The notes below the pieces were generated by a model. It saw only the letters and a program-made list of their open reading frames with translations. It was not told where the DNA came from and did not search any database. Below are positions 7,432-13,699 of a stretch of 13,699 bases of DNA, piece by piece (within the stretch, counting starts at the first letter, position 1; every line of letters starts with the position of its first letter). The position numbers and the translations under genes were made by a program. The stretch comes from a virus (taxonomy: Duplodnaviria; Heunggongvirae; Uroviricota; Caudoviricetes), in the IMG/VR virus record IMGVR_UViG_2537561934_000011. One strand, given 5' to 3'.

Positions 7432-8880
7432 TTGCTCAACAAGTATAATGGAGTTCCCGTGGATACAGCAGAACATGATGGCAAATTTGCTTGGGCTAGT
7501 TTTTATGAGGCTTTTGCCAACGCGTTACTGACTTGGCGAAATCGTAGAGATGAATTAGTCAAAGGTATTCATCTAATTGCCTCAGGTGTGGAAGGAATGT
7601 CCCATCTGCAGGACAAATCTATTATGGGAGAGATCTTTCCCTTAAAAGACATTTGTCCGTTTACTACTATGGGCTTGTTCAATCGTAACTTGACCGACAG
7701 CAATCGCAAAATTATTGCTGCCAAGCTAGCGAATTTGTTGGGCGTGAACGAACCGATTCCTGACTCCTTTGCCGGAATCCCGCTGTTGAATAACCAAAAA
7801 TCTTGGTTCTTTGGTTATGAAAAGTCACGCGACCCTAATGACATTGAATGCTTGTGGGAAATGTTCTCGCAGGCAATGACCTTTGCGGATAACCAGAATA
7901 CTAACTCTGCAGACTTCACTGCCGCATATGACATTGCTTCTACAGTAATGAATGTCGGTTGGAATCTCACCATGGGGTTGTACTGGACCCGTCCTTGGTT
8001 CTACCCTACTTTAGATAGCCAGTCGCAGTATTACATTCAGACAGTGTTAAACATTAAGATCATTAAAAACGGGGCAAAAGGTCGCTGTAGTGGACAAAGT
8101 TACCTGAGTCTTATGCGGGCGCTGAACGAGGTCTTTACCCAACCAAACTATCCGGTTCATTCTTTCCCAGAACTTTCTTTATCAGCGTGGAATACAGATC
8201 TTAGCCAGTCTAAAGATGAGGTGGCAAATAGAACGTGGAAAGCCTCTTTACTGAATAAAATTAAGGCGTTATGCCTGAAAAAAAATGGCCCTTATTTCAC
8301 TGCTTCGGAGTTGGAAGAAAACTACTTGGACGTATTCAAGGTAGAGCATCCTGAGAGCAAAACAGTTACAAGCTCAATCTACTTTTATCTACAGAAACTA
8401 TGCAATGATGATGAGTTAAAGTCCCTTGAGTCCGGAAATTATGAATACCTGAATTTTGAGAAAAATGAATCCCAGACGATAACTGAGGAAACTGTCGAAG
8501 AGAGTGCGCCGTTGCCAAAACTCACTCACGTTCCTTATGACATCAGTCATCTGGTGCAGGATGGCTGTTTCTTGGAAGAGGCTAAGATCCAACTCACACT
8601 TCAGCGCCTGATCGACAAGAAAAACCTGATATTACAAGGACCACCCGGAACTGGAAAAACCTGGTTAGCGCGACGTCTGGCGTACTGCTTGATGGGAGAA
8701 AAAGCACCTGAGCGTATTAGCGCGGTGCAATTTCACCCGAACCTCTCTTACGAAGACTTTATTCGCGGCTGGCGTCCAGGTAAAGAAGGGCAATTGACGC
8801 TAATTGATGGACCTTTTGTAAATGCAATCAAAACTGCAGTCAATAATCCTACCTCGAAATATGTGGTGATAATTGAAGAG
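7432..8880 (+). pseudogene. mcrB: McrB-like AAA+ GTPase gene, 5' part (long N-terminal domain, Walker A), interrupted by IS1 at 8881
   Basis: Walker A GPPGTGKT (8638-8661), then ARRLAYCLMGEKAP..VQFHPN.SYEDFIRG and the start of Walker B (VVIIEE) before the IS1 end; this tracks the K-12 McrB GTPase domain as I recall it. The preceding roughly 370 residues are unrelated to the K-12 McrB N-terminal domain. Start is uncertain (TTG at 7432, or GTG at 7459 with GGAG upstream). Confidence 0.8.
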
Positions 8881-8895
8881 GGTAATGACTCTAAC

Positions 8896-9399
8896 TTATT
8901 GATAGTGTTTTATGTTCAGATAATGCCCGATGACTTTGTCATGCAGCTCCACCGATTTTGAGAACGACAGCGACTTCCGTCCCAGCCGTGCCAGGTGCTG
9001 CCTCAGATTCAGGTTATGCCGCTCAATGCGCTGCGTGTAATGTTTGCTGATTACGTGCAGCTTTCCCTTCAGGCGGGATTCATACAGCGGCCAGCCATCC
9101 GTCATCCATATCACCACGTCAAAGGGTGACAGCAGGCTCATAAGACGCCCCAGCGTCGCCATAGTGCGTTCACCGAATACGTGCGCAACAACCGTCTTCC
9201 GGAGCCTGTCATACGCGTAAAACAGCCAGCGCTGGCGCGATTTAGCCCCGACATAGCCCCACTGTTCGTCCATTTCCGCGCAGACGATGACGTCACTGCC
9301 CGGCTGTATGCGCGAGGTTACCGACTGCGGCCTGAGTTTTTTAAGTGACGTAAAATCGTGTTGAGGCCAACGCCCATAATGCGGGCAGTTGCCCGGCAT
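8896..9399 (-). CDS. insB: IS1 InsB reading frame (InsAB' transposase by -1 frameshift)
   Basis: Canonical IS1 InsB sequence ..[41 protein letters not shown].. Confidence 0.85.
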
Positions 9400-9593
9400 C
9401 CAACGCCATTCATGGCCATATCAATAATTTTCTGGTGCGTACCGGGTTGAGAAGCGGTGTAAGTGAACTGCAGTTGCCATGTTTTACGGCAGTGAGAGCA
9501 GAGATAGCGCTGATGTCCGGCAGTGCTTTTGCCGTTACGCACCACCCCGTCAGTAGCTGAACAGGAGGGACAGCTGATAGAAACAGAAGCCAC
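9318..9593 (-). CDS. insA: IS1 InsA, 91 aa
   Basis: [43 protein letters not shown].. matches canonical IS1 InsA as I recall it. Confidence 0.9.
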
Positions 9594-9648
9594 TGGAGCA
9601 CCTCAAAAACACCATCATACACTAAATCAGTAAGTTGGCAGCATCACC

Positions 9649-10191
9649 ATTGAAGAGATTAATCGTGGCAATCCGGCGCAAATCTTCGGTGAAACACTCA
9701 CGTTGATGGAAGCAGATAAACGCACGCCGACTGAGGCATTATCTCTTTCCTATCCTAAAAATGATGATGAAAAAATATACATTCCTGAGAATCTATATAT
9801 CATCGGTACGATGAATATTGCAGACCGCTCACTCGCACTACTTGACCTAGCGCTGCGCCGTCGTTTCGCGTTTATCGATCTAAAGCCAGCTTTTAATGAC
9901 GCGTGGAGAAACTGGGTAAATTATAATTACGCAATTGATTTTGACATGTTAGCATTCATCAAATCTCGACTGACGGTACTTAACGATATGCTGGCAAAAG
10001 ATGTTACCTTAGGACCACAGTTTTGTATCGGTCACAGCTATGTCACCCCAGCTATCGGCCAAAAAATCAACGATGCCCAGGCTTGGTATGAACAAGTCGT
10101 TGATACAGAGATCTGCCCTTTGCTCGCCGAATATTGGTTCGATGCTCCAAATAAAGTCGATGAAGCCAGAAAAGTGTTATTAGCAAAATGA
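9649..10191 (+). pseudogene. mcrB: McrB-like AAA+ GTPase gene, 3' part, in frame with the 5' part once IS1 and one repeat copy are removed
   Basis: Reads (IEE)INRGNPAQIFGETLTLMEADKRT..YIPENLYIIGTMNIADRSLALLDLALRRRFAFIDL.., corresponding to the K-12 McrB segment IIDEINRANLSKVFGEVMMLMEHDKRG..YIIGLMNTADRSLAVVDYALRRRFSFIDI as I recall it. Stop overlaps the mcrC-like start (ATGA at 10188-10191). Confidence 0.8.
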
Positions 10192-11309
10192 CGACAATAA
10201 CCGGGAGTGAGCAACATACAGCATCACGTATTCCCATGCGAAATATCTGGATGCTGATGCTGTACGCTTCAGATCTGTTTCGTCAGTTAGGGCGCAATCA
10301 GATCGCAGTAGAAGATAACCCAGCAGAAATCCCCGACCTGGTGGCGACAATCCTCCTTCATGAGATTACGCTGCGCCGACGTCGCAATTTAAATATGGGA
10401 TACCAAACTTGTCATGCGGCCCTGAACCGAGTGAGAGGGCGCATTGACATACTGTATACTGCCAGTCATCAACTACTGGAACGGGGACAGGTTGCCTGCC
10501 ATTTTCAAGACATAACCCTCAACACCCCCCGAAATCGCTATGTTCGCTGTGCGTTAGAACGTCTGGCCTCAATCATAGTGAAACCGTCTTTGGCGGCAGA
10601 TTGCCATTTTATGGCAATATCACTTCGCCGTGAGGGGATAAATGGAGGATATCCTGCCCCCCACGAATTACCCTCAGTGTGGCGTTTTGGACGCCATGAT
10701 GCCGCAGATAAACCGATGGTCGATGCCGCACGATTAGCTTTTGAACTGCTGATGCCGACCGAAGATCAAGGCCAATATCTTTTACCTGCGCCCTCAAATA
10801 ACCTTTACTGGATGAGAAGACTATTTGAAAAAGGTATCGCTGGCTTATATCGTGTACACCTTGCCAAAACAACTTGGCAGGTCTCTGCAGGGAAAGAGCT
10901 GAAATGGGCGTTGAGCGATCAAAGTGCAGGTAGTGCAGAGATTTTCCCGACAATGAAGTCAGACATTATTCTGGAACACAAGACTGCCCAGCGGCGTATT
11001 ATTATCGATACCAAATTTAATTCGATTCTGACAAAGGGTTGGCATCGGGAGCAATCACTACGTAATGGCTATATTTATCAGCTATATACCTACCTTAGAA
11101 CACAGGAGAACAAGACGGATCCGCTTTCGCTCAATGCCGCTGGTCTTCTACTTCATCCAGCTGTTGGCTATATGCTTAATGAGTATGTTGTCACTCAGGG
11201 ACATAAGATCCATTTTGCTACAGTAGATATGACGGTAGATGCTAAAGCAATTAAAAAACAATTGCTGGCAATAGCCCATGATTGTGCAGGAGTCGCGGTT
11301 GATGACTAA
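10188..11309 (+). CDS. mcrC: McrC-like subunit (PD-(D/E)xK nuclease partner of McrB), 373 aa
   Basis: Translationally coupled to the mcrB-like gene. Length and position fit McrC. Candidate catalytic motif SDIILEHK..RRIIIDTKF (D at 11007-11009, K at 11013-11015). Confidence 0.75.
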   Translation: MTTITGSEQHTASRIPMRNIWMLMLYASDLFRQLGRNQIAVEDNPAEIPDLVATILLHEITLRRRRNLNMGYQTCHAALNRVRGRIDILYTASHQLLERGQVACHFQDITLNTPRNRYVRCALERLASIIVKPSLAADCHFMAISLRREGINGGYPAPHELPSVWRFGRHDAADKPMVDAARLAFELLMPTEDQGQYLLPAPSNNLYWMRRLFEKGIAGLYRVHLAKTTWQVSAGKELKWALSDQSAGSAEIFPTMKSDIILEHKTAQRRIIIDTKFNSILTKGWHREQSLRNGYIYQLYTYLRTQENKTDPLSLNAAGLLLHPAVGYMLNEYVVTQGHKIHFATVDMTVDAKAIKKQLLAIAHDCAGVAVDD

Positions 11310-11788
11310 CCATCCTATAAGGCACTGGCTGTAATATAATCAATAGTTTCAATTAAGTAGCTGTTATCCGTGCTTAGTCATCATATGACGCACCACGGTC
11401 TAATTTTCCTGCTCATACATTGATATATCCTTGTCGAGTCCGGAAAGTCGCAGTCCACTATTAGGTATACCGATTGCCAGCACCAAAAGCTTCTTTGTGA
11501 TTATTATATCGGGGAATGCCTATTTTTTAGTGACAATATCAGATAGCAATTAATAAGCGGTGCCGGTAATGGATGTTATGTTTAATGTATAGACACAGCC
11601 ATCATAAACTAAACGTCTGTTGTTCGCTCATAACCGACATTTATCTCAGTTATGGAAGATAATTATGTATGCAGATAATGGGGCAGACAGTCGTGGAGTA
11701 AACAAGGTTTTGCACTGCTTGGCGGCATCGTTATCTTATTTTTAATTATGTGCCTCTTAACATAAGTTGGGACAAAACAGAGACACAT

Positions 11789-11819
11789 AAGGTCTCACAA
11801 AGGTCTGCAAGGCCTCACA
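11789..11819. repeat. Three tandem 11-bp imperfect direct repeats AAGG(T/C)CT(C/G)CA(C/A)A
   Basis: Read directly: aaggtctcaca / aaggtctgcaa / ggcctcaca. One-helical-turn spacing, about 200 bp on the prophage side of the icd junction. Confidence 0.4.
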
Positions 11820-12010
11820 TGTATTGAGATGTTAATAAAATGTAGACTTGTAATTTGGATATAAATGGTAGAGAAAACCTTTCCCCAAAATAAAAACGAA
11901 CGTCAATGAAATCAAACGGTTGAATAAAGTTGATTTTGGCTAATAAAAAAACAATAAAATAATTTTTATCATTAAATATCAATGACTTGAACTTAATGTT
12001 TTTATATACT

Positions 12011-12172
12011 GTTACGCCACATGGGTTGGACCGAAGCCGCAGACCTGATTGTTAAAGGTATGGAAGGCGCAATCAATGCCAAGACCGTAACCTATGACTT
12101 CGAACGTCTGATGGAAGGCGCTAAACTGCTGAAATGTTCAGAATTTGGTGATGCGATCCTCAAGAACATGTA
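12011..12172 (+). pseudogene. icdC: Displaced original 3' end of icd (isocitrate dehydrogenase), marking the right prophage/host junction
   Basis: In-frame translation ..[57 protein letters not shown] matches the Icd C-terminus as I recall it. No upstream icd coding sequence; AT-rich prophage DNA precedes it. K-12 e14 has the same int .. pin, restriction gene, icdC, iraM, ycgX order. Confidence 0.8.
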
Positions 12173-12195
12173 ATCACTACATGTGTTTAATATTG

Positions 12196-12228
12196 CAACG
12201 GGCGTATAACACGCCCGTTGTTTTATTT
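12196..12228 (+). terminator. Intrinsic terminator of icd: 10-bp perfect stem, 5-nt loop, T-run
   Basis: caacgggcgt-ataac-acgcccgttg followed by ttttatttat, 25 bp after the icd stop codon. Confidence 0.6.
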
Positions 12229-12275
12229 ATGTAGGTATTATTAATAGCATATCGAGCATATTTATATAAAACCCT

Positions 12276-12599
12276 TTACTTGAGCCCATATGGGCATATT
12301 TTTATAATGCAACTATTATGCAAACATTTATTTGTTATTTTGCTTTCTCCTGGAGGACACTCTTGACTGCTTTTGAGTAGACTCCATAAATCCTTGTTGA
12401 ATGGTGCGATGTTATAAATAGTAATAGGATATTCTTTATCTTTAAGGATAATTCCAGATTTAACCGGTGTAAATATACTGCCAGGAGGGAGAAATATAGT
12501 AGATTGATACCAGATGATCATTTTCATATTACCCCATATGGCTGAAAAAGATATGCCGCATGAAGGTTGAATTATCGTGTCAATTACTATCCACTTCAT
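12276..12599 (-). CDS. iraM: IraM-like anti-adaptor protein (RssB inhibitor), 107 aa
   Basis: Sequence [41 protein letters not shown].. matches my memory of E. coli IraM (YcgW). Length and position after icdC fit the K-12 order. Long AT-rich upstream region. Confidence 0.7.
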
Positions 12600-13054
12600 T
12601 TGTTATGTCTTATCCCACGGTATTTAATATAGTTCATTTGGATGTTCATTTCTTTATTTTGCATATGAGTATATTACCCCTTCAAAAAATAAATTAATTA
12701 AAACGATTGCTTATATAAAACAAAATTTAAAGCAAGGAATCTCAATGGATGTTAAACAAAATGAGATTTAGAGAAAACAATAAATTATTCACTTCGTTTT
12801 AGATTTGTTTAGCTATAATGTTATACATTCAAATGACTGAACATCCTGTAATTAAAACATAGCCTTTATGCTACTTTGTGCCAATTTGCTAAACATTATG
12901 GTTGCCTTTTTATATAACGATAATAATGAATATAAGCATGACATGAGAATAAGGTTTCAATTTTTGAGTTATATAGGAAAGGTTTAACCTGTTCCTGGCT
13001 AAAATACATATAACTGGATGATGACTAAACCAAAACACATGTGCGTTAAGTATT

Positions 13055-13088
13055 GAAACGGGCGTATGGCACACCCGTTGTTTTTATA
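13055..13088 (+). terminator. Second, imperfect copy of the icd-terminator hairpin module (function uncertain)
   Basis: gaaacgggcgtatggcacacccgttg followed by tttttataaa. About 85 percent identical by eye to 12178-12230, with one stem mismatch. Confidence 0.3.
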
Positions 13089-13294
13089 AATATATTAACC
13101 GTTATAAAATAACGTATAGAAAGTCAAGTGATCACATTTCAAATATCAATTTGATAGTATTGGCATGGTGATTATTTATGGGTAGCAATAAAAGGACAGT
13201 ATTTATCATCCATAGGGATAGTCTCTGTACTTTTATTCCCATTATGCTAATGCCTTACTGAATTATGAAGCATTTCTTAAGCATCCAACTTTAG

Positions 13295-13699
13295 CTAGAT
13301 TAATGGTTTATTATTTTCTACATCTTCAATATATAAAAGCGTATTATCAATGGCGTAGTAACTGCGTTTGTTATGATTAACATCAGTAACCCACCGGAAA
13401 ACGCCCGCGCCTGCTAGTGTTGAACAGTATTCCCGAAATGTAGATTTTCCGCAAATATGAAGCAATGCGGCCTCTTTTATTTTAGCAGGGTTCTTGGTCG
13501 TACTAACTTTTAACAGGTTCCTGGTTCCTCTTAATAACAAAACCGTGTCATCGTGAGTAATAATTCTGATGTTATCCGTAGCCAGATAATAAATGTAATG
13601 TGCAATACGGTGATGTTTTAATTCTGAATAAAACCAGGAGAAGTTTTGCTCTTTTCTCACTTGCTCAAACATCTTTTGAAAAACAACGACCTGATCCAT
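13295..13699 (-). CDS. ycgX: YcgX-like protein of unknown function, 134 aa; start codon is the last three bases of the window
   Basis: Length and position (upstream of iraM, minus strand) match K-12 ycgX. I do not recall the sequence itself well. The ORF could extend beyond the window edge. Confidence 0.55.
   Translation of the reverse strand: MDQVVVFQKMFEQVRKEQNFSWFYSELKHHRIAHYIYYLATDNIRIITHDDTVLLLRGTRNLLKVSTTKNPAKIKEAALLHICGKSTFREYCSTLAGAGVFRWVTDVNHNKRSYYAIDNTLLYIEDVENNKPLI

Follow-up and report, generated by a model that had tools for sequence, protein, structure and literature searches.

What kind of DNA a McrBC-type restriction pair would recognise when the DNA-reading part of its McrB subunit has been exchanged for something else is the question raised by a two-gene locus in a 13,699-nucleotide stretch of viral DNA (IMG/VR record IMGVR_UViG_2537561934_000011; this whole stretch is called the window below). 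The locus, on the plus strand, is composed of an mcrB-like gene (7459 to 10191) and an mcrC-like gene (10188-11309). An earlier note, made from the sequence, had described it as a McrBC-family pair inactivated by the insertion sequence IS1, located where mcrA sits in the e14 prophage of Escherichia coli K-12, and with a long N-terminal region in its McrB-like subunit that could not be assigned. The reading favoured here, with a probability of roughly 0.7, is that of a Type IV (modification-dependent) McrBC system which a decayed e14-like prophage carries as cargo at its attR end and which IS1 has killed, and in which DUF8425, a domain at the N-terminus of the McrB-like protein, would be the main sensor when the gene is intact.

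Two open reading frames, at 7432-8961 and 9703-10191 (both on the plus strand), are the two halves of a single mcrB-like gene that starts with a GTG at 7459 and is split by a 768-bp IS1 (8881..9648, minus strand). This element has everything expected of an IS1 insertion: its length, the terminal inverted repeats, insA (9318-9593) and insB' (8896-9399), and a target-site duplication, seen as a perfect 9-bp direct repeat, ATTGAAGAG, at 8872..8880 and 9649..9657. When IS1 and one copy of the repeat are deleted in silico, the frame is continuous again and the product from GTG 7459 has 651 amino acids, residues 1-474 (the complete sensor region plus Walker A) being encoded by the 5' part (7459..8880) and residues 475-651 (the NxxD signature, the arginine-finger region and the lid) by the 3' part (9658..10191). 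The interruption falls inside Walker B, between VVIIEE and INRGN, and the duplicated codons are those of I472-E473-E474 of this motif; the insertion therefore destroys the motor. GTG 7459, which has a GGAG 5 nt upstream and to which the start given by the Prokaryotic Genome Annotation Pipeline (PGAP) in intact genomes maps, is a more likely start than the upstream TTG at 7432. The system of the window is thus dead, and could produce at most a fragment of 474 native residues followed by a tail of 26 IS1-encoded residues, which is the open frame left in the interrupted gene. This fragment holds both sensor modules and Walker A, and a DNA-binding, motor-dead protein might still be expressed from 7432-8961. 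A promoter and terminator scan of 7000-11600 gave signals at background level only.

Residues 366-643 of the repaired protein match the structures of E. coli McrB (EcMcrB; 6hz4, 6ut6 and 7vsr, with E values from 4e-77 to about 1e-77), and the Pfam AAA_5 domain is found with E = 3.5e-27. The NCBIfam McrB model gives 265.5 bits over the AAA+ part only, below its whole-protein equivalog cut-off of 637. Walker A (GPPGTGKT, residues 394-401, 8638..8661), the NxxD signature (MNIADRS, 9811-9831) and the arginine-finger region (ALRRRF, 9850-9867), all on the plus strand, together with Walker B, make up the set of motifs of a McrB-type AAA+ GTPase, which is complete in the repaired allele only. Judged by its sequence, the C-terminal part of the protein (285 residues) is closely related to the GTPase of E. 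coli McrB.

The downstream gene, of 373 codons, codes for a McrC with a D...DxK nuclease motif. Its product passes the NCBIfam McrC model (355.6 bits against a cut-off of 338), matches Pfam PF10117 (E = 5e-21) and aligns over its full length with E. coli McrC (EcMcrC; 6hz4_M, 59.5 bits, E = 3e-15), keeping the nuclease residues (SD259...IID274-T-K276, against TD...VDAK in EcMcrC; D259...D274-x-K276 lies at 10956-11018, plus strand). At 10188 an ATG forms a 4-nt overlap (ATGA) with the mcrB stop codon; PGAP places the start at 10236 (M17), giving a protein of 357 amino acids. The alignment with EcMcrC begins at residue 15, with the conserved IPMRNI, opposite EcMcrC residue 6, and since the M17 start would cut off both this segment and the ATGA overlap, 10188 is the better and more likely start for what would be a 373-residue protein. 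The 373-residue form is already used in some public records, and the homologous genes of Leclercia share an identical 4-nt mcrB/mcrC overlap. In E. coli, Leclercia and one other genome examined, mcrC lies directly downstream of the mcrB-like gene and no methyltransferase is found nearby. The matches to the McrB structures (E = 4e-77) and to the McrC model, and the 768-bp element with its 9-bp duplication inside Walker B, confirm what the earlier note had said about the type of the pair and about its inactivation.

The N-terminal region is a different case. It had been measured at about 370 residues before Walker A; the extension before the homology to EcMcrB is in fact close to that, about 365 residues, although Walker A itself lies further on, at residues 394-401. 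It can also be assigned, contrary to what had been thought, as it consists of two modules: DUF8425 (PF28527), here module A (residues 1-245, 7459..8193), and a DpnI_C-like winged helix, module B (residues ~252-335, 8212..8463), followed by an acidic linker to the motor (residues ~336-368, 8464..8562), all on the plus strand. The linker was modelled with low confidence (predicted local distance difference test, pLDDT, below 50 at residues 345-357). The claim that the region has nothing of the short DNA-binding domain of K-12 McrB (DUF3578, a 5-methylcytosine reader) held, with no match to DUF3578 over residues 1-369 in Pfam, NCBIfam or the PDB. As a single sequence, these residues had no match at all in the local Pfam, NCBIfam, PADLOC, PHROGs or PDB sequence sets, and HMMER searches of PDB sequences, run with one sequence and with two profiles of the N-terminal region, returned nothing relevant. 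The local Pfam copy predates PF28527, and membership in DUF8425 rests on the precomputed annotation of relatives rather than on a direct hmmscan score: module A is 45-69% identical across the whole domain to proteins with precomputed PF28527. A word-indexed search retrieved 280 relatives, matching exactly the segment of module A, from Desulfuromonadaceae, Syntrophobacteraceae, Acidobacteriota, Omnitrophota, Psychrobacter, Plesiomonas and others.

Three motifs are conserved in DUF8425: DICPFT..FNR (residues 64-76), GIPxLNNQxSWFF (106-118) and WNLTxGLYWxRPxxFxTLD (168-186). The AlphaFold2 model of the domain alone (pLDDT 93.4, predicted template modelling score 0.91) is all-alpha, with ten helices and one beta-hairpin, and eight aromatic residues (W12, F15, Y16, F68, F74, W133, W176 and Y215) are each kept in at least 89% of 149 non-redundant members. 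For module B, the winged helix of DpnI was the top structural match. The Pfam DpnI_C model finds it in the E. coli protein with E = 0.42, below threshold, which counts against the assignment; in relatives the E values are stronger, 7e-9 for the Leclercia protein (56% identical) and about 1e-12 for two more. The N-terminal 365 residues thus replace the methylcytosine reader of K-12 with DUF8425 and a DpnI-like winged helix.

An exhaustive phmmer search with DUF8425 against 1.84 billion cluster representatives gave 1954 clusters (at 50% identity) with a cut-off of E<=1e-3 and 1350 with one of E<=1e-10, which places this domain, with some 1950 clusters, among the commonest N-terminal modules on McrB motors. 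A McrB-type AAA_5 domain lies downstream in nearly every full-length DUF8425 protein examined, and PF28529, found beside the AAA domain in relatives, is 'McrB_lid'. The accessory domains around DUF8425 vary: there may be none, HTH_24, HARE-HTH, Mrr_N, a DpnI-like winged helix or an extra N-terminal domain. The winged helix is absent from most DUF8425-McrB proteins, in which only 64-66% of the query is covered. In other proteins, which have no motor, DUF8425 is joined directly to a nuclease: HNH_2 (P0231), the McrC nuclease half (P0236) or Mrr_N (P0247); P0018 is a further direct fusion to Mrr_N. The domain also occurs in FRG-domain proteins on Bacteroides plasmids, in a McrB family protein recorded for plasmids of Deinococcus radiodurans and, as two or three tandem copies, in proteins such as P0121 (840 amino acids) and P0122 (1368 amino acids). 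A reader joined to interchangeable nucleases is the distribution of the known modified-DNA sensors EVE, SRA, YTH and winged helix, and it is mainly because of this fusion pattern that DUF8425 is given a DNA-sensing role. The single-chain fusions to HNH, McrC nuclease and Mrr_N are, from their domain composition, candidate stand-alone modification-dependent endonucleases.

The suggestion in the earlier note that the N-terminal region could be a different sensor altogether is therefore kept as the most plausible role, given the HNH, Mrr-type and McrC-type fusions, while the novelty it implied is overstated: the architecture is already catalogued, the domain has a Pfam DUF accession and intact alleles are common. 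Many DUF8425-McrB relatives (e.g., P0005-P0012, P0123 and P0125) carry in addition an N-terminal domain of about 160 amino acids (WFVGA...DQT.RF...GIWE...GD.IAIKS...VMAIKAIG); it had no local Pfam match, and may be PF28530 and a further reader.

Intact alleles, whose search had been proposed as a check, were found. The repaired 651-residue protein is identical to WP_000379042.1, annotated as 'AAA family ATPase' in intact genomes, and this exact sequence is present on at least 1000 contigs of a public protein collection. Of 5426 complete E. coli genomes, 289 have the IS1 target site without interruption, and the IS1 junction of the window was found in none of the complete E. coli genomes of the collection; the inactivation is therefore specific to this strain or lineage. 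Literature searches found no mention of WP_000379042, PF28527 or DUF8425. Being intact in about 5% of complete E. coli genomes, many of them from clinical isolates, this natural allele offers a convenient model.

That the intact alleles are themselves non-functional relics of a decaying prophage, with no restriction phenotype, is a possibility suggested by the heavy degradation of the prophage around them (truncated bet, regulator and replication genes, and a frameshifted pin) and by the tolerance of their loss in the strain of the window; besides, the copies in E. coli have 95% identity or more (mostly 99% or more), so that selection within E. coli cannot be judged. Yet both genes are full length with all catalytic motifs intact, the two-gene operon with its 4-nt overlap is kept in unrelated genomes and contexts, and the family is large and well conserved, all of which makes this explanation highly improbable.

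Dam is normally present in E. coli. Because hundreds of genomes of this species carry the intact pair, its trigger would not be ordinary Dam (Gm6ATC) or Dcm methylation. This bears on another explanation, in which the specificity element would be the winged helix, making the pair an N6-methyladenine-dependent McrBC, and DUF8425 would be a scaffold, an oligomerisation or a regulatory domain. The rank of the DpnI winged helix among structural matches fits such an arrangement, and so does the conservation of DUF8425 across phyla (45-60% identity), which is unusually high for a specificity domain and could mean a structural or regulatory role; it is, for the same reason, a point against DUF8425 as the reader. 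Nevertheless, the majority of DUF8425-McrB proteins have no winged helix, the nuclease fusions of DUF8425 occur without it as well, the E. coli winged helix reaches only E = 0.42 against DpnI_C, and the presence of the intact pair in 289 genomes of normally Dam+ bacteria argues against Gm6ATC as the trigger. Many fusions of a winged helix to a nuclease do restrict Dam-methylated DNA, but the methyl/GATC-binding motif of DpnI is found in only about 10% of winged-helix fusions (PMC11037411). On balance, we consider it unlikely that the winged helix sets the specificity. The only reported attempt to purify a protein with this architecture (N-terminal domain, winged helix and NTPase) failed (PMC11037411).

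With DUF8425 as the main sensor, the system can be pictured as follows, the sensing of DNA by DUF8425, the nature of its target and an EcoKMcrBC-like mechanism being steps that we infer. In intact alleles, DUF8425 would probably scan DNA for a non-canonical or hypermodified base of incoming phage DNA, and the recognised base would probably be flipped into an aromatic-rich pocket, while the winged helix would provide contacts to the duplex or a second check. The AAA+ domains would then hexamerise and bind McrC, GTP hydrolysis would power translocation and McrC would cleave, as in EcoKMcrBC. By analogy with END nucleases, the best guess for the target is a hypermodified phage base, such as glucosyl-hydroxymethylcytosine or a deazaguanine. 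Once learned, the target of DUF8425 would lengthen the catalogue of modified-DNA readers, could help to explain the phage host range of the strains that carry the intact pair and could also give a new reagent for the detection of DNA modifications.

Base flipping brings up the relation of DUF8425 to DNA glycosylases, whose Ogg members are its best fold match, although this similarity is marginal and profile searches lend it no support. A helix (150-160), a hairpin, a second helix (169-177), the segment RPWFYPTL and D186 resemble the helix-hairpin-helix/Gly-Pro/Asp element of these enzymes, in a register that we infer; Asp or Glu is present at position 186 in 97%, and P179 in 99%, of the 149 non-redundant members. 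Several observations go against the relationship. The hairpin Gly is kept in only 34% of members, HMMER profiles of DUF8425 matched no glycosylase of the PDB, neither HhH-GPD nor OGG was found when 32 members were scanned with Pfam, and hhalign of DUF8425 against endonuclease III (EndoIII) and hOGG1 gave a probability below 1% and did not align the putative helix-hairpin-helix. The hhalign targets were E. coli EndoIII, an EndoIII alignment and hOGG1; the search for EndoIII homologues gave only sequences at least 86% identical, which were of little use, and the hOGG1 probe sequence was confirmed against PDB entries (449 bits). A likening of 'GVGWNLTMGLYWIRPWxFPTLD' to the HhH-GPD motif of MutY and EndoIII was discarded, as the hhalign probability was below 1% and the registers differed; resemblance alone is not evidence. 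The Ogg/EndoIII-like nature of DUF8425 is hence a hypothesis and not a result, for and against which the odds are about even. Tentatively, DUF8425 would be a very diverged relative of Ogg/EndoIII-type glycosylases, as would the 'inactivated EndoIII' sensor, also found fused to McrB, of the END-nuclease preprint.

If the relationship were real, DUF8425 could even be an active DNA glycosylase that excises a modified base, with McrBC acting on, or alongside, the abasic sites. The best fold match and the Asp/Glu at 186 in 97% of members speak for an enzyme, as does Lys at 169 in 15% of them (the nucleophile site of bifunctional HhH-GPD enzymes, if the register is right), and precedents exist for glycosylase-based defence; the marginal fold similarity, the lack of profile support and the dependence of all these residues on the register speak against it, and the related END sensors are described as devoid of catalytic residues (PMC12191111). 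An active glycosylase is accordingly very unlikely. A bolder and still improbable version makes DUF8425 a diverged Ogg/EndoIII base-flipping module that is an enzyme or nearly one, with the winged helix as a second reader, so that cleavage would require two signals and Dam-methylated host DNA would be spared; if true, some 1950 clusters of DUF8425-McrBC would link a GTP-driven nuclease to the recognition, or the excision, of hypermodified bases in phage DNA.

The window covers the side nearest icd of an E. coli prophage that is lambdoid, e14-like and degraded. Related complete genomes show the order icd, integrase, excisionase, small genes, a gene for a DGQHR-domain protein, exo, truncated bet, a truncated regulator, a YdaT/CII-like gene, a truncated replication gene, IS1, a frameshifted pin-type recombinase, the 'AAA family ATPase', mcrC, an icd fragment, iraM, ycgX and bluR. 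At the attR end of e14 in K-12 the order is pinE-mcrA-icdC-iraM, and here it is a pin pseudogene, the mcrB-like gene, mcrC, the icd fragment and iraM; the gene orders agree, and the placement of the pair in the mcrA slot, already proposed from the sequence of the window, was correct. Type IV restriction cargo appears to be exchanged in the slot at the attR end of e14, which holds mcrA in K-12 and mcrBC here; this is a small, clear example of defence genes replacing one another at a fixed prophage position. The pin-type invertase pseudogene (6433-7100, plus strand) has frameshifts, an internal stop and no N-terminus, its K-12 counterpart pinE being intact in the equivalent place. Beyond mcrC lie the icd' attR fragment (~12006-12173), iraM (12276-12599, minus strand) and ycgX (13295-13699, minus strand), in a region (11500-13699) with a GC content of 29-37%, against 40-55% in the prophage.

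A second IS1 (5665-6432, plus strand), 91% identical to the one in mcrB, truncates an O-like replication gene (5091-5669) and abuts the degraded pin-type recombinase. No target duplication was found around it (its flanks read ...CTAACAA and AACAATT...), and it is regarded as an older event because it is common to the genomes with intact alleles. The two IS1 copies are inverted and bracket 6433-8880, and recombination between them could invert this segment, including the 5' half of mcrB. A gene between exo and the integrase (2168-3232, minus strand) codes for a DGQHR-domain protein of 354 amino acids (phrog_7901, E = 1e-214; weak ParB-like match), which could be prophage-borne defence or anti-defence cargo. 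Positions 7215-7245 (GAGAGGATTTGAACCTCCGAG) resemble, for the minus strand, the end of a tRNA T-arm; neither ARAGORN nor Rfam detected a tRNA there.

Among the closest known systems is EcoKMcrBC, with which the pair shares the two-gene operon, the overlap of stop and start codons, the motifs of the AAA+ GTPase and the D...DxK motif of McrC. It differs in that the DUF3578 5-methylcytosine reader (about 160 amino acids) is replaced by some 365 residues of DUF8425 and winged helix, in that McrC resembles EcMcrC far more weakly than the motor resembles EcMcrB, and in its location at a prophage attR end instead of the immigration control region. A census of McrBC systems (CoCoNuT) refers to DUF3578 only as the K-12 reader, and a search of its text for the terms gave no mention of a winged helix or DpnI.

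In architecture, the protein belongs to a class described in a screen of winged-helix fusions (Helbrecht et al. 2024), 'NTD-wH-NTPase' (N-terminal domain, winged helix, NTPase) with a McrC-like partner, which was reported as uncharacterised and with its N-terminal domain not identified (PMC11037411). The likeness extends to every part, as a DpnI-like winged helix lies between the N-terminal domain and a McrB-like NTPase and the McrC-like nuclease is separate, whereas the N-terminal domain is identified here as DUF8425 and most DUF8425-McrB proteins have no winged helix.

The END nucleases, in which an inactivated EndoIII/Ogg-like domain senses hypermodified phage DNA and which have been described in a 2025 preprint (PMC12191111), offer a parallel for the sensor. 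The END sensor is also fused to PLD, NucS-like and McrB-like GTPase modules (PMC12191111). Compared by description only, both systems have an all-alpha sensor, whose remote similarity to Ogg/EndoIII is tentative for DUF8425, swappable effectors (a McrB-like GTPase among them) and a defence role, putative for the pair studied here, against modified phage DNA, and neither has a methyltransferase partner; however, the effector here is McrBC and not the PLD nuclease of END, and DUF8425 keeps an Asp that may or may not match the catalytic one.

EcoKMcrA of e14 occupies the chromosomal slot of the pair, with the pin invertase on one side and the icd' attR fragment, next to iraM, on the other, and is, as predicted for the pair, modification-dependent restriction cargo, although it is an unrelated single-chain NEco-HNH enzyme. 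Finally, TgMcrB, which reads N6-methyladenine through a YTH domain, and LlaJI.R1 of Helicobacter pylori, with a B3 domain, resemble the protein described here in having kept the motor and nuclease while the N-terminal DNA-recognition module was swapped, the N-terminal region here being larger than theirs and made of two modules.

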